A stretch of 41,033 nucleotides of DNA from a virus (Duplodnaviria; Heunggongvirae; Uroviricota; Caudoviricetes). Each line of letters opens with the position of its first letter. The first letter of the stretch is position 1. Below the pieces are notes generated by a model. That model was not told the DNA's origin. It saw only the letters and a list, made by a program, of their open reading frames with translations, and did no database searches. The stretch lies in IMG/VR virus record IMGVR_UViG_2541047701_000006. One strand, given 5' to 3'. The position numbers and the translations under genes are program-made. Shown in pieces: positions 1 through 40,657 of this stretch.

Positions 1-462
1 ATGCTGGGTGATTGTTTCCCTCCTGATTTTAAGGCTAATTTTAGTCGTGAAAGAGGTATATCACCCGGTGATGTATTGTATCTTCATTGTGATTTTACGA
101 CCCCACCTAAAGTAAAATATATGGTGGTTGTTTGCTGTGAACCTCTTTTAGTTCTTCTAATAAATTCAGATATAAATGAATTTATTAAGAGAAACAATGA
201 TCTTATGGCTTGTCAGGTCGAAATTAATAGAGAGGACCATGATTTTCTTAAATGGGACTCATTTGTTAATTGCATTGAGGCTCATGCTGCTTTCGATCTT
301 GAAATTATTAAAGAGAAAATAGCCATCCAATATGGTGACGTGCTAAAAGGTCGCATTACAGATCATTGTATGAGACAAGTTCGATGTGCAGTTGAGATAT
401 CTAAAACTATGGTTAAACGGCATAAAAAACTGATACTCGCTGCTCTTCAACATTATGAATAA
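1..462 (+). CDS. Hypothetical protein, AT-rich orphan (cargo candidate)
   Basis: 153-aa ORF starting with ATG at nt 1; visibly lower GC than flanking phage genes; hairpin terminator directly downstream; no motif recognised. Confidence 0.45.
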   Translation: MLGDCFPPDFKANFSRERGISPGDVLYLHCDFTTPPKVKYMVVVCCEPLLVLLINSDINEFIKRNNDLMACQVEINREDHDFLKWDSFVNCIEAHAAFDLEIIKEKIAIQYGDVLKGRITDHCMRQVRCAVEISKTMVKRHKKLILAALQHYE

Positions 463-2668: not shown

Positions 2669-3160
2669 TCACTCTCCTTTGATGCGAATGCCAGTGGTAC
2701 TCATTCTCCTGATTTCCCAGAGCACACGAGGAACACCACCGTTTCCGATCGGATCGCGTTTACTCCGCAGGGCGACGCTTGATTCCGCCCAGTTTTTTCT
2801 TGGAGGAAGCTCTTTCACACGAACAAAACCAGCTGCGCGAAGAGATGCTCCTGATTCATCTGCCTGGGTGTACGTAATACAACGTTGATAACCCATAGCT
2901 TTTGCTGCCCGCCAGACAGCACCATAAAGCGCGCTGTTAGCGTTGCGTTCTCCTGTGGTACATGTGCGATTTACTTCAAGCGTTAATCCATCGTCCAAAT
3001 GTCGTGCAACAGGTCGACCAGCTGTCGCCACACCTATCAATTCTCCGGCATCATTTATCAGACCAATGCTGAATTTATGCCCAACAGGTGGTTTATTGTG
3101 TCGGTGATGTCTGGATATAAACGCCTTCGCAACACGAAGAGTAACCGGTGAAATTTGCAT
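2669..3160 (-). CDS. Hypothetical phage protein
   Basis: ORF ending IRIKGE; start set at MQISP (ATG at 3160) 2 nt after the upstream TGA, RBS AAGGAGAG inside the upstream gene; track ORF extends to 3199. Confidence 0.5.
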   Translation of the reverse strand: MQISPVTLRVAKAFISRHHRHNKPPVGHKFSIGLINDAGELIGVATAGRPVARHLDDGLTLEVNRTCTTGERNANSALYGAVWRAAKAMGYQRCITYTQADESGASLRAAGFVRVKELPPRKNWAESSVALRSKRDPIGNGGVPRVLWEIRRMSTTGIRIKGE

Positions 3161-3162
3161 TC

Positions 3163-3444
3163 TCACTCTCCTTTGATGCGAATGTTTACAGCCTGACAAG
3201 CCTCTTCGAGAACCCAGTCAACAGCGTCTTTCCATGCTCCGGTTTCGACTGGCGGATTTTCACGCTTAACCTGTTCATAGAAGCGCACCGCTTTAACCAA
3301 TCCTTCTGGTGTCAGTGGCACAGGCGGGGCAGTGAATAACGCCTGAATTTCATAGTTCGGCCTGTCGTTGCAGTCTTCTTTTGTCGGTACGTATTTCCAG
3401 TCACTGATTTCTTTAATCAGTTCTTTGTCGGTGAACGTTGTCAT
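3163..3444 (-). CDS. Hypothetical phage protein (shares N-terminal module with 1377-2393 gene)
   Basis: 93-aa ORF MTTFTDKELIKEI..., ends NIRIKGE; about 50 bp at its start is repeated at 2350-2405. Confidence 0.5.
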   Translation of the reverse strand: MTTFTDKELIKEISDWKYVPTKEDCNDRPNYEIQALFTAPPVPLTPEGLVKAVRFYEQVKRENPPVETGAWKDAVDWVLEEACQAVNIRIKGE

Positions 3445-3447
3445 GTG

Positions 3448-3735
3448 TTAGTCCTCATCCACTTCAACGCCATCTTTCAGCGTGATGCCGTGCCAATCAT
3501 CAGCCCAACTGGTTAGCCCTGGCGCATCAATGCTAGGCATATAGACGCTTGCAGTGTGGTAGCCCTTATCGTTATCAATGCTGGCAACGTGCTCGCCGTT
3601 GTATGCGCTCAGCGTGTCCAGGACGCTATAAAACTTTCCTCCGGCTGCCCTGAAATCCTTTACAGCCTTCACAAGGCGATTCCACGCTTTTTCCTGTTCT
3701 GGCGTCAGGTCGATTAATTCCTGCAAAGTTGCCAT
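3448..3735 (-). CDS. Hypothetical phage protein
   Basis: Start set at MATLQELIDL (ATG at 3735) using the same junction/RBS repeat; track ORF extends to 3897 overlapping the upstream gene. Confidence 0.5.
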   Translation of the reverse strand: MATLQELIDLTPEQEKAWNRLVKAVKDFRAAGGKFYSVLDTLSAYNGEHVASIDNDKGYHTASVYMPSIDAPGLTSWADDWHGITLKDGVEVDED

Positions 3736-3736
3736 A

Positions 3737-4300
3737 TCACTCTCCTTTGATGCGAATGCCAGCGGCGCGCTCGGCTTCACTTTGTTCCCAAAACCACTTG
3801 TGAAGCGCCATAAGTTTTTCGTCAATCGGTGCATATTTGCGATTAAAGTAGGCCTGAGCATCTTTCTCAGATTCGTCCGGTAATTCGCCTGGGCCAAACA
3901 GTGTGTTATAAATCCATGCCAGTCCGCTCTTAGCGTCGCCAGTTGCCTGCCATTCGATAATGGCAGCCTGCATGACCAGAATGTTTTTCCCGATTAATAG
4001 GTCCAGTTCTTTGTACCGGTTGCGGATGTATGCATTCTCGCTTTGTAATTCAGCGTTTCGCTTCTCTGCTGCTTCCAGCTCATCCAGCAGCGCCAAGACG
4101 GTGGCAGGATTGGCGGCGGCTATGAATCGTTTATTGGCGCGATTATCTGGTCCTGAGCATGATGCTATGTAGTAATTGGCGTTCAGTCCGGCATCGGCAA
4201 TTACTCCATGGTAGTCATCAGCACACCATTCGCCTGGTGTTGCATTTTCTGCCGCCAGTCGCAGAGACTGATAGTTAATCTCGCTCACTGGTTGCCTCAT
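3737..4300 (-). CDS. Ead/Ea22-like protein
   Basis: N-terminal INYQSLRLAAENATPGEW and central coiled coil resemble the Ea22-like family of lambdoid early-left regions; ends GIRIKGE. Confidence 0.55.
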   Translation of the reverse strand: MRQPVSEINYQSLRLAAENATPGEWCADDYHGVIADAGLNANYYIASCSGPDNRANKRFIAAANPATVLALLDELEAAEKRNAELQSENAYIRNRYKELDLLIGKNILVMQAAIIEWQATGDAKSGLAWIYNTLFGPGELPDESEKDAQAYFNRKYAPIDEKLMALHKWFWEQSEAERAAGIRIKGE

Positions 4301-37465: not shown

Positions 37466-38020
37466 ATGCTTATTGGCTATGTACGTGTGTCAACAAATGA
37501 CCAGAACACAGATCTACAACGTAATGCGCTGAACTGTGCAGGATGCGAGCTGATTTTTGAAGACAAGATAAGCGGTACAAAGTCCGAAAGGCCGGGACTG
37601 AAAAAACTGCTCAGGACATTATCGGCAGGTGATACGCTGGTGGTCTGGAAACTGGACCGACTGGGGCGCAGTATGCGGCATCTTGTCGTGCTGGTGGAGG
37701 AGTTGCGCGAACGAGGCATCAACTTTCGTAGTCTGACGGATTCAATTGATACCAGTACCCCAATGGGGCGCTTTTTCTTTCATGTGATGGGTGCCCTGGC
37801 TGAAATGGAACGTGAACTGATTGTTGAACGAACAAAAGCAGGACTGGAAGCTGCTCGCGCACAGGGACGAATTGGCGGTCGCCGTCCCAAACTTTCACCA
37901 GAACAATGGGCGCAGTCCGGGCGACTAATTGCATCAGGAGTTCCTCGCCAGAAGGTGGCGATCATTTATGATGTTGGCGTATCGACTTTGTATAAGAAGT
38001 TTCCAGTCGGAGATAAATGA
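37466..38020 (+). CDS. pin: Serine recombinase, DNA invertase Pin/Gin/Hin family
   Basis: MLIGYVRVSTNDQNTDLQ catalytic-serine N-terminus, RLGRS, C-terminal HTH; near identity to recalled e14 PinE over the N-terminal 25 aa; ATG 37466 with GGGAGA RBS (track ORF from 37430 is N-extended). Confidence 0.9.
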   Translation: MLIGYVRVSTNDQNTDLQRNALNCAGCELIFEDKISGTKSERPGLKKLLRTLSAGDTLVVWKLDRLGRSMRHLVVLVEELRERGINFRSLTDSIDTSTPMGRFFFHVMGALAEMERELIVERTKAGLEAARAQGRIGGRRPKLSPEQWAQSGRLIASGVPRQKVAIIYDVGVSTLYKKFPVGDK

Positions 38021-38123: not shown

Positions 38124-38372
38124 TTAGTGAACAAACCACTCGTCAGCAGATTCCCAGGTATCTTTCAGAGTCTCCTGAACAAAAGTTTTTGCAGAATCCT
38201 TATCTGCGGTGCGTGTAACAGAAAGGCCATCGTTGCTGGTGGCTTTTACGATCACCTCTACATCGTCATAACGTTTACTGATGCGTCGGGTTAATTCTTC
38301 CTTTAACGCATCCACAGCACCGGTTGGCATTTTAGTCATTTTTTCTTTGGCTATGCAGATTTCAATACGCAT
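38124..38372 (-). CDS. dinI: DinI-like protein
   Basis: [10 protein letters not shown]...[14 protein letters not shown]...[16 protein letters not shown] parallels chromosomal DinI end to end; GAGGGA RBS. Confidence 0.8.
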
Positions 38373-38385
38373 AAAAGTCCCTCTA

Positions 38386-38429
38386 TACTGTGTTTGTATA
38401 CAGTATTGTTTTTAACTGTATGGATAAAC
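38386..38429. promoter_or_regulatory. Two LexA (SOS) boxes upstream of the dinI-like gene
   Basis: CTGTGTTTGTATACAG (38386-38401) and CTGTATGGATAAACAG (38414-38429) both fit CTGT-N8-ACAG exactly. Confidence 0.65.
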
Positions 38430-38433
38430 AGTG

Positions 38434-39531
38434 TCAAGGGGTCTTATTTCTGCTCCTTTGGAGCTCTTCAAAACGATTATGTAAAGATTTCGGATACAGT
38501 TCGGTATATACCTGCCATAGCACGTTTAATGAACGATGCCCTGTAACCTGGGCTACTTCCTCAATACTAAAACCAGCCTCAAATAAGCGACTTGCCCCTT
38601 CTCTACGCAAATCATGGTATCGCAGATCCTTAATACCTAATTTGCTTCTTACCCTCTGAAATCCCGCAGTAACAGAAGTGCTGTTATATGGAAAAATGAA
38701 TTCCGATTTTTGGGGCTGTCGTTGGACGATATCCCAGGCTTCCCCAAGCAAGGCTACTTTCATGTGGTTGCCTTCCTTTTTGCGTGGATCTTTCCTGTCT
38801 CTTACGAGTATAGATTTTTGTTCCTGGTCGAGATCTTCCCATCGTAACCGGCATACTTCTCCGATTCGCATACAGGACCACACAGAAAATTTGAGGATAT
38901 CAACGAACGGAATTTTTGAGCATTTATGAGTAGATCGTTGTTGAAGGCCTTCAATGAGCATGTCCAGTTCATCAGATGCTGGTCTACGATTACGACGGTT
39001 TGATTTACCAATCAAACCAAGTTTAAGTAGATATGGACGAGCACTTTTCGCCGGGTTTGATGTGTAATTAATTCCGTATACAGGTTTGGCCGCATCCAGA
39101 ACACTGCCAAGATAACTAACATCGTGGCTGACTGTTGCTGGACCTGCGCCAGCGTTGTTTCTTAGCCTGCAATGTTCAATTACGTCATTTTCTGTCAGTT
39201 CAGATAGTTTGATCGCGGAGATGTCACTATCCATAAGCAGTTCCAGCACATATCTTTTAGTACGGCCTGCTTTACCTCCGGCATTTGGGTCATTTAAATA
39301 TTTGTGTAGTAAGTCACGGACTGTAAGTCCGTCAACTGCATTTGATGATGGAATGCCATATAGATCTAATTCCATCACTTTCTGTGTGCCCCATGTTTTG
39401 GCATGAGCATGTTTAGGGAATGTTTTGCTTTCCCTGTAAGTGATAACACCTTTTTCTTTGATAATCACATTACAGCGATAGCGTGGTGTGCCATCGGATT
39501 TTAGTCGTTTCTCTATGTTATAGTACGCCAT
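38434..39531 (-). CDS. Tyrosine integrase, dusA-associated
   Basis: C-terminal catalytic motifs (LRYHDLRREGASRL, TGHRS, Y near C-terminus); adjacent to and divergent from dusA. Confidence 0.85.
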   Translation of the reverse strand: MAYYNIEKRLKSDGTPRYRCNVIIKEKGVITYRESKTFPKHAHAKTWGTQKVMELDLYGIPSSNAVDGLTVRDLLHKYLNDPNAGGKAGRTKRYVLELLMDSDISAIKLSELTENDVIEHCRLRNNAGAGPATVSHDVSYLGSVLDAAKPVYGINYTSNPAKSARPYLLKLGLIGKSNRRNRRPASDELDMLIEGLQQRSTHKCSKIPFVDILKFSVWSCMRIGEVCRLRWEDLDQEQKSILVRDRKDPRKKEGNHMKVALLGEAWDIVQRQPQKSEFIFPYNSTSVTAGFQRVRSKLGIKDLRYHDLRREGASRLFEAGFSIEEVAQVTGHRSLNVLWQVYTELYPKSLHNRFEELQRSRNKTP

Positions 39532-39619
39532 TACACGACCTCGTTATTTCGGGTTCCCATAAAACGTGGGAACCTGAGCGGGAACCTAACGCGAGAAAAA
39601 TAGCCTGAAATGTTCAAAA

Positions 39620-40657
39620 ATGCACGATAATCATGAAACACAAAAAATTAATCAAACCAGCGTGATGCCTGAAAAAACTGGTGTTTACTGGAATTCTCGG
39701 TTTAGCATTGCTCCTATGCTTGACTGGACGGACAGACATTGCCGTTATTTCTTGCGTCTGCTTTCCCGCAATACGTTGTTGTATACCGAAATGGTGACCA
39801 CAGGGGCGATTATTCACGGTAAAGGTGATTACCTGGCGTACAGTGAAGAAGAACATCCGGTAGCGTTGCAACTCGGGGGTAGCGATCCGGCGGCGCTGGC
39901 ACAGTGTGCGAAGCTGGCAGAAGCGCGTGGATATGATGAGATCAACCTGAATGTCGGCTGCCCGTCTGACCGGGTGCAGAACGGCATGTTTGGTGCGTGT
40001 CTGATGGGTAATGCGCAGCTGGTTGCCGACTGCGTGAAAGCGATGCGCGATGTGGTGTCGATTCCGGTGACGGTGAAAACGCGTATTGGCATCGATGATC
40101 AGGACAGCTATGAATTTCTCTGCGATTTCATCAACACCGTTTCCGGCAAAGGTGAGTGTGAGATGTTCATCATCCACGCACGTAAAGCCTGGCTTTCTGG
40201 GTTAAGTCCGAAAGAAAACCGTGAGATCCCGCCTCTCGATTATCCGCGTGTGTATCAACTGAAGCGTGACTTTCCGCATCTGACGATGTCGATTAACGGT
40301 GGTATCAAGTCGCTGGAAGAAGCTAAAGCGCATTTGCAACATATGGATGGCGTGATGGTCGGGCGCGAGGCGTATCAGAATCCGGGTATTCTGGCGGCGG
40401 TAGACCGAGAGATTTTTGGTTCCTCGGATACCGATGCCGATCCGGTGGCGGTAGTGCGCGCCATGTATCCGTACATTGAGCGTGAACTCAGCCAGGGTAC
40501 GTATCTCGGCCATATTACCCGGCATATGCTGGGCTTGTTCCAGGGTATTCCTGGCGCGCGGCAGTGGCGGCGTTATTTAAGTGAAAATGCCCATAAAGCG
40601 GGTGCAGACATTAATGTGCTGGAACACGCGCTCAAACTGGTGGCGGATAAGCGTTAA
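39620..40657 (+). CDS. dusA: tRNA-dihydrouridine synthase A (host)
   Basis: FMN/TIM-barrel Dus motifs ([30 protein letters not shown]); pspG is its downstream neighbour. Confidence 0.9.

Follow-up and report, generated by a model that had tools for sequence, protein, structure and literature searches.

Putative arm-type sites of a lambda-like integrase at a prophage junction in dusA

Results

The int-dusA locus

The viral DNA analysed here, a stretch of 41,033 nucleotides (IMG/VR record IMGVR_UViG_2541047701_000006; hereafter the window), carries at its right end, in order, a Gin/Pin-type invertase, a DinI-like gene, an integrase gene (int), an 88-bp spacer, dusA and pspG. The coordinates are collected in Table 1. 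The initial annotation had placed int next to and divergent from dusA across a spacer of this length, and both points are borne out by the open reading frame (ORF) coordinates and the Pfam matches. It had also described three GGGAACC-type repeats in the spacer as candidate integrase arm sites. All three repeats are present and its range for the last of them (39580-39586) is correct; the ranges given for the other two (39552-39559 and 39567-39574) are off by one base, at one end each. The inverted copy and the first direct copy together form a dyad, GGTTCCCA-N7-TGGGAACC, that was absent from that annotation. The evidence set out below makes it likely that the region is the right attachment site (attR) of a ~40-kb lambdoid prophage with an integrase of the mEp460/1720a-02 family, inserted at about codon 33 of dusA, and that the GGGAACC(T) repeats are arm-type sites of this integrase (Int).

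The clustering of the repeats was assessed against the whole window. GGGAACC was observed 10 times in the window where 4.55 occurrences are expected, and three of these fall within 35 bp. Of 400 sequences simulated for the whole window with a first-order Markov model, none gave at least three copies within 40 bp, and 1.75% gave at least two. Since no simulation reproduced the cluster, it is not due to chance.

Int is a tyrosine integrase of the dusA-associated family. The catalytic R-H-R-H-Y set is complete (R222, H306, R309, H332 and Y342), and in a set of 59 homologues H332 and Y342 do not vary, while H306 and R309 hardly do. The predicted domains are an N-terminal β3-α domain (residues 2-58), a core-binding domain and a catalytic domain, and the best structural match is lambda Int. 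A PDB sequence search with Int returned catalytic-domain structures only and no arm-binding domain, and the matches from fold searches with the isolated N-domain were non-specific.

Table 1. Positions of the features discussed, in coordinates of the window. RDF, recombination directionality factor; the P arm is the int side of the phage attachment site, attP.
Feature	Position	Strand	Remarks
PrtN-family gene, probable excisionase (RdfN-type RDF)	496-768	minus	PF11112, E 3.9e-23; 90 aa
int	38434-39531	minus	ORF, 365 aa; Pfam Phage_integrase PF00589, E 7.5e-21
TGnTATAGT, extended -10-like element	39516-39524	plus	candidate dusA promoter; overlaps int codons 3-5
int-dusA spacer	39532-39619		exactly 88 bp, between the divergent genes
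Inverted repeat copy GGGAACC	39552-39558	minus	exact; putative distal P-arm site; position conserved, with class-specific sequence, in relatives
Direct copy 1, GGGAACCT	39568-39575	plus	GGGAACC exact at 39568-39574
Direct copy 2, GGGAACCT	39580-39587	plus	GGGAACC exact at 39580-39586; 12 bp start-to-start from copy 1
AAAATA block, P arm	39597-39602		invariant in 19 aligned elements, at least 12 genera
AATGCAC block	39619-39625		invariant in the same 19 elements; includes the ATG of the phage-supplied dusA 5' end
dusA	39620-40657	plus	ORF, 345 aa; Pfam Dus, E 7.8e-105
Phage-derived dusA 5' end	39620-39715	plus	first 32 of 345 codons; 39715 is the last phage-specific base
attR core, TCCTAT-GCTTG-ACTGGA	39712-39728		left half-site phage, right half-site chromosomal
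8-bp core, ATGCTTGA	39716-39723		common to the bacterial site attB; contains the crossover
Chromosomal part of dusA	39724-40657	plus	~99% identical to empty-site dusA from 39707 on

Phage DNA ends within the dusA coding region

The region from 39400 to 40100 was compared with 5426 complete E. coli genomes. All 5426 matched the dusA part, and 742, or about 14%, matched the int side as well and thus carry this integrase at dusA. In the genomes lacking the junction, similarity starts either at 39617 (~94-95% overall) or at 39707 (~99%). The empty sites are of two types. The K-12 type (zur-DUF2713-dusA; locus L001) aligns from 39617, with ~83% identity over the first 100 nt and no match upstream, and the alignment of the zur-dusA type (locus L003) begins only at ~39707. 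The first 96-104 nt of dusA in the window are thus unlike both empty-site alleles, and they are the same as a segment found within intact attP. A four-way alignment of the two empty-site alleles, an insertion in a plasmid and the window placed the end of phage DNA at 39715-39723. The plasmid insertion, in which the same phage lies in parB of pEND_Eco18005, matches the window without a difference as far as 39719 and departs from it beyond that point. The dusA ORF is unbroken across the junction, and the Pfam Dus match spans it (residues 30-340).

The phage side of the exchange can be read from the virion-derived genomes of mEp460 and SKA5. There attP is intact, with the start of int, the same spacer, the dusA 5' mimic, the core TCCTATGCTCGATAGGA and the attL-side phage sequence following one another. 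The attP core is a perfect inverted repeat, TCCTAT-GCTCG-ATAGGA. The left junction, attL, lies outside the window, in which no direct repeat of the dusA 5' region was found. The initial annotation had suggested looking for the repeated dusA 5' core beyond the left edge, and it was found there in strains A24, UTME-7 and LH85-a, which share left-end genes with the window and served as proxies. In these genomes attL lies ~0.74-1.0 kb past the position of the window's left edge. The displaced host dusA 5' end is found beside zur or DUF2713 and is fused to phage TAGGATGTACC; the junction reads ATGCT(T/C)GA followed by TAGGATGTACCG, that is, ATGCT(T/C)GA followed by TAGGATG. UTME-7 and LH85-a are 99.9% identical to the left 2.5 kb of the window and the right end of UTME-7 is 98.2% identical, and the prophage body of LH85-a differs from that of the window. 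The A24 junction is 99.9% identical to the window, and its leftmost 517 bp are different.

The empty-site alignments, the attL junctions and the intact attP agree, and we therefore assign 39620-39715 to the phage, the crossover to ATGCTTGA and the sequence from 39724 on to the chromosome. The earlier proposal that the first codons of dusA may be phage-derived thus holds: the identity with empty-site alleles over the 5' end and promoter that would have refuted it is not seen, and dusA differs from both types up to the core. Going by these alignments, the phage DNA to the left of ATGCTTGA includes the spacer, a probable dusA promoter and ~32-34 dusA codons.

In the circular form of the phage, int and the PrtN-family gene at 496-768 lie on opposite sides of attP. 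By analogy with other dusA-specific elements, this gene is the probable RDF of the prophage.

The GGGAACC motif is also present on the second attP arm

The second arm of attP, P', which is also present at attL, carries a tandem of the same motif, TGGGA(G/T)CCT-ATT-GGGAACC, ~45-60 bp beyond the core. The P' segment reads TTTGTGGGAGCCTATTGGGAACC. The pair, TGGGAGCCTATTGGGAACC, is located at the opposite end of the prophage, and the homology between phages with different cargo ends right after it. The whole attP spans ~240 bp, with the P-arm sites at ~-140 to -170 and the P' tandem at ~+45 to +60. In four intact attPs (loci L146, L147, L006 and L148), a match to the consensus for integration host factor (IHF), WATCARNNNNTTR, lies at +28 from the core, before the P' sites. 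YeP1 and EKP1 match it exactly, and mEp460 and SKA5 with a single mismatch. The window as a whole holds seven exact matches to this consensus, and none was found in the P arm.

Fifty-two integrase relatives from other species were fetched, and more were added from IMG/VR. In ~40 relatives from at least 12 genera, the region next to int has the same layout: an inverted (or third direct) copy, a pair of direct copies with 12-bp spacing, AAAATA and AATGCAC. An exact tandem of at least 7 nt with 12-bp spacing was scored in 29 of 47 int-upstream regions (p<=0.03 against shuffles), mostly 25-50 nt from the int ATG. The motif itself falls into classes. GGGA(A/G)CCT is found in Escherichia, Kosakonia, Pluralibacter and Phytobacter; GGGGTGCT in Izhakiella, Mixta, Xenorhabdus, Serratia, Sodalis, Morganella, Yersinia and Pseudomonas lundensis; GGTGTACT in several enterobacterial elements, two of them from Xenorhabdus; and GGTGTCCT in Rosenbergiella gaditana, Proteus, Erwinia dacicola and Aeromonas. 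Other motifs occur in Shewanella, Idiomarina and a Hyphomicrobiales metagenome-assembled genome. The class motif is found on both arms in six attPs, intact or reconstructed: those of the E. coli phages, YeP1, EKP1, Kp4887-1, L215 (GGTTCCC) and L204. YeP1, for example, has GGGGTGCT on the P arm and GGGGTGCTATTGGGGTGCT on the P' arm, and EKP1 has GGTGTACT and GGTGTACTATTGGTGTACC. The match between the two arms is only partial in the Proteus element L150.

The AAAATA and AATGCAC blocks keep a fixed spacing, and they are retained in relatives that are not at dusA and have no following ORF. The AAAATA block may serve for DNA bending, for the binding of an accessory factor or as part of a promoter. 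For the two blocks together, the possibilities are the int promoter, a site for the RDF or a bending protein, or translation initiation.

The motif class follows the N-terminus of Int

Among the relatives, four motif classes correspond to four N-terminal signatures of Int. The class is predicted by Int residues 1-45 and not by residues 61-360, and the signatures fall in predicted strands: ..V(I/L)(I/V)..IT(Y/F)RE, TVGV..YIYRE, TVGI..HLHRE and SVS(I/V)..RI(F/Y)NE. The integrases of L018 and L019 are 94% identical over residues 61-360 and 64% identical over residues 1-45, and their motifs are GGTGTCCT and GGGGTGCT, respectively. Likewise, L021, L022 and L024 are 88-90% identical to L028 in the rest of Int and 73% identical in the N-terminus. 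Pairs of the same class with only 58-60% identity in the rest of Int reach 76-80% in the N-terminus. This correlation suggests that the arm motif and the Int N-terminal module have been swapped in concert, with the dusA core target fixed.

Collectively, the motif on the other arm, the layout shared by at least 12 genera and the co-variation with the N-domain support the earlier suggestion of arm sites, and we propose that the GGGAACC(T) repeats are very probably arm-type sites of a lambda-like integrase.

Alternative readings of the repeats

Several observations weigh against the assignment as arm-type sites. The Pfam search of Int gave no arm-binding domain and only a sub-threshold match to Int_N, at residues 72-165. 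The Vibrio relatives at 50-52% identity showed no obvious repeat pattern in the first 100 nt. The N-terminal codons of int are only 20-55 bp from the P-arm repeats, and because they adjoin the P arm, part of the co-variation of motif and N-terminus could be linkage in swapped segments. For the swapped pairs, the motif comparison covers the P arm only; the Rosenbergiella element of such a pair is a full-size prophage, and its attL is therefore past the 10-kb flank. Among 34 distinct close relatives, 2 of 23 repeat positions are variable compared to 15 of 65 in the rest of the spacer, so that the repeats are not significantly less variable than the remainder (Fisher p = 0.22). The sole in-repeat variant among these relatives, in L011, is a paired change, T39555C with A39571G, that preserves the dyad. 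In L018 and L026 the dyad is longer than the motif and contains a compensated position. Such compensated changes hint at an additional hairpin or dyad constraint.

The last two observations also speak for a different reading, in which the inverted copy and direct copy 1 act as a stem-loop, instead of or besides serving as protein sites. This would be an RNA hairpin in the phage-supplied 5' untranslated region (UTR) of dusA or the int leader, or a DNA cruciform, and it would act on transcript stability, insulation or translation. The plus strand from 39545 to 39580 folds at -20.2 kcal/mol (z = -6.1), and the whole spacer has z = -3.0. A Watson-Crick stem of at least 6 bp is present in 27 of the 48 relatives' spacers scanned (28 of 49 with the window), ~20 of which pair the inverted motif with direct copy 1, and the stem of L018 and L026 is 13 bp long, with the compensated A/T to T/A change lying outside the shared motif. 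However, the other 21 spacers have no such stem, and several of the stemless ones (Serratia, Pseudomonas lundensis, Idiomarina and Hyphomicrobiales) have a third direct copy instead. The minus-strand fold is no better than shuffles (z = -0.04), and with no T-run after it, the stem does not qualify as an intrinsic terminator. Template switching in quasi-palindromes can give compensated changes without selection. A stem-loop would also leave direct copy 2, the P' tandem and the co-variation with Int residues 1-45 unexplained, and we retain it only at low probability, as a secondary or additional role.

Still less probable is that the repeats are operators at which a regulator (a phage repressor, the PrtN-family RDF or a host factor) controls the divergent int and dusA promoters. 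The repeats do lie between two divergent genes, where the promoters must be, their layout of a dyad with direct repeats is typical of operators, and in a related element the int promoter at this position is constitutively active (PMC8409611). Yet the same motif pair is found across attP, at the end of the inter-phage homology and without a shared promoter. The motif class tracks the N-terminus of Int even where the rest of Int is 88-94% identical, and the same integrase and repeats occur in phages of unrelated content, namely an Stx phage, a lambda-like phage and the present phage with its Mu-type tail.

The notion that the repeats are chance, non-functional leftovers and that dusA is a native allele next to an unrelated integrase can be put aside almost entirely: GGGARCCT by itself is not over-represented in the window (3 observed against 1.83 expected), but this reading is rejected by the clustering simulations given above, by a repeat layout conserved across genera, by empty-site alignments in which dusA differs from both types exactly up to the core, and by the same 5' segment in intact attP.

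A model for recombination at dusA

We return to the repeats as arm-type sites, for which we propose the following model. The N-terminal β3-α domain of Int would bind the arm sites, and the core-binding and catalytic domains would bind the core dyad. As with lambda Int, bent DNA would be bridged by Int into an intasome, the P' arm being bent at its IHF-like site and the 130-bp P side by unspecified means. Recombination within ATGCTTGA would exchange the 5' end of host dusA for that of the phage, leaving the host 5' end at attL, and the PrtN-type RDF (496-768) would direct excision.

The P arm would at the same time be the promoter, leader and first codons of dusA. Since the phage brings a sequence that mimics the dusA 5' end, insertion restores dusA at full length and in frame, and its transcription presumably starts from a promoter supplied by the phage. 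The TGnTATAGT element in the first codons of int is a candidate for it; this element is also found upstream of both empty-site dusA alleles, and a generic promoter and terminator scan of 39300-39900 found nothing. If the P arm is the promoter, 5' UTR and first codons of dusA, occupancy by Int could make the expression of a host tRNA-modification enzyme depend on the state of the prophage. Sequence comparison shows the position of the junction, the structure of attP, the repeats on its two arms and the co-variation of motif and N-domain; that Int binds the repeats, that IHF takes part, where the promoter lies and any effect of Int occupancy on dusA or int expression are inferred.

Other insertions and dusA 5' ends

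Two insertions of the phage family outside dusA were observed. That in parB of pEND_Eco18005, a 205-kb plasmid of avian pathogenic E. coli (APEC) (locus L002, 6300-6340), has the junction CCTATGC followed by GGCACCGGACAGTC; the second, an IMG/VR locus at another chromosomal site, has CCTATGC followed by GTGGCTGGGCGCAC. The phage sequence thus ends in TATGC at the secondary sites, and both retain a CTGG/CCGG-AC-like right half-site.

Some of the attR sites in IMG/VR loci L063-L142 are hybrids within the dusA 5' mimic, with phage-type sequence up to CTGAAAAAACTG and K-12-type sequence beyond. This implies homologous recombination or gene conversion between the dusA 5' copies at attL and attR in hosts of the K-12 type.

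The first ~100 nt of K-12-type dusA, which include a 15-codon N-terminal extension, are 83% identical to this phage (L001 1500-1620 compared with 39619-39723 of the window) and 86-87% identical to the element-borne 5' ends of Kosakonia, Phytobacter and Pluralibacter. The zur-dusA allele has a shorter and unrelated 5' end. The K-12-type 5' end either remains from an element that was once inserted there or was itself captured by the elements. When the K-12 dusA upstream region was considered as a fossil attR, significant homology was found only from AAAATGCACGG over the first ~100 coding nt (83-87%), and the similarity upstream of this was not significant.

Other features of the prophage

Two matches to the LexA box, TACTGTGTTTGTATACAGTA (38386-38405) and AACTGTATGGATAAACAGTG (38414-38433), lie between the stop of int at 38434 and the DinI-like gene, which starts at 38372 on the minus strand. 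CTGT-N8-ACAG occurs three times in the window where 0.51 is expected. The position of the LexA boxes by the DinI-like gene suggests an SOS-controlled dinI moron.

The ORF at 1-462 (plus strand) has no Pfam match. In the attL proxies it comes after a Panacea-domain gene located just inside attL (L005 2926-3962; L004 7740-8728), and A24 has a different partner ORF in its place. The Panacea gene and this ORF look like a PanA-type antitoxin with an exchangeable toxin, carried as prophage cargo.

Six imperfect iterons, TCAAAATCTGACNCR, with 15-bp spacing are located at 9636-9758 within the ORF at 9348-10289, whose counterpart in relatives is annotated as a helix-turn-helix-domain protein. They look like a lambdoid-type replication origin within an initiator gene.

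The Gin/Pin-family invertase (37430-38020; Resolvase and HTH_7 domains) adjoins opposed tail-fibre and tail-fibre-assembly ORFs, and the segment 35700-38020 is an invertible host-range segment, as annotated in relatives.

In the early-left region, direct repeats of 56 nt (2354-2409 and 3405-3460; 96% identical) and of 42 nt (2656-2697, 3150-3191 and 3724-3765; 74-98% identical) span the 5' ends of successive small ORFs on the minus strand, together with the sequence upstream of each. This suggests duplicated or recombining gene starts.

Discussion

Integration at dusA and replacement of its 5' end are already published, dusA is a documented hotspot and the junction is a routine one, of a kind already known from E. 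coli prophages. The dusA-associated integrases and the 5'-end replacement were defined by Farrugia et al. 2015 (PMC4482086). Their elements, which include some from E. coli, share with the present one a tyrosine integrase beside and divergent from dusA, insertion at the 5' end with a replacement 5' end, a displaced host 5' end at the other junction and semi-conserved att repeats. Nothing essential differs; arm-type sites, an RDF and accessory sites are not described in that paper.

Two closely related systems are the Stx2d phage 1720a-02 (KF030445) and the lambdoid phage mEp460 (JQ182728), whose integrases are 99.5% and 98.9% identical to Int of the window. Their spacer, repeats and dusA 5' mimic are identical to those of the window except for GTGC in place of GAGC between the direct repeats. 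In contrast to these phages, the present prophage has Mu-type baseplate and tail genes and a Gin/Pin invertase, lacks stx and carries other attL-side cargo. Experiments with 1720a-02 showed that it integrates 100 bp into dusA at a 7-base core, that its own dusA' ORF is in frame and that attP does not form without Int (Balasubramanian et al., PMC6328086).

For IMEVchUSA3 and other Vibrio dusA-specific elements, Durand et al. [quoted passage not shown] These elements use the same target site and also have the PrtN-family gene across attP from int. They are IncC-mobilisable islands with AcaCD-controlled rdfN, whereas the present element is a tailed prophage with the PrtN gene in an early leftward operon. 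The integrases of Vibrio elements are only ~50-55% identical to Int of the window.

The likeness to lambda Int and its attP lies in the predicted three-domain integrase, in short arm repeats, present on either side of the core and different from it in sequence, in the positions of these repeats and the ~240-bp span of attP, and in the match to the IHF consensus between the core and P'. The differences are that no N-domain sequence similarity is detectable, that the RDF is of the PrtN type rather than lambda Xis, that int and the RDF gene flank attP rather than lying on one side, and that the P arm has no IHF consensus and would also provide a host gene with its promoter, 5' UTR and first codons.

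The literature searched contained no account of arm sites for dusA integrases, general works on integrative and conjugative elements or genomic islands that name both arm-type sites and dusA not being covered by the search, and the word 'arm' is absent from PMC4482086, PMC6328086 and PMC8409611. The assignment of arm sites is thus new as far as we found, although it is the expected kind of feature for such an integrase.

A wider reading of the motif classes can be offered tentatively. The dusA integrases would recognise one core target and fall into at least five classes of arm specificity (GGGAACCT, GGGGTGCT, GGTGTACT, GGTGTCCT and GGTTCCC/GGATACCT-like), which might have arisen by exchange of the ~45-residue N-module together with the repeats of both arms. 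Lambda and HK022 show the reverse of this pattern of one core target with several arm-motif classes.

For the family, the assignment gives an anatomy of attP in which three putative P-arm sites are followed by a core dyad, an IHF-like site and the tandem of the P' arm. This anatomy could be used for the exact delimiting of prophages and islands at dusA, for predicting cross-talk of co-resident elements and for choosing integrase/att pairs for engineering. Part of attP would be under dual constraint, as attachment site and as the promoter and coding region of a host gene. If the arm classes are functionally orthogonal, elements that compete or stand in tandem at dusA would be insulated from each other's integrase and RDF, and the dusA integrases would then represent natural orthogonal pairs of arm sites and N-domains on a common catalytic scaffold.

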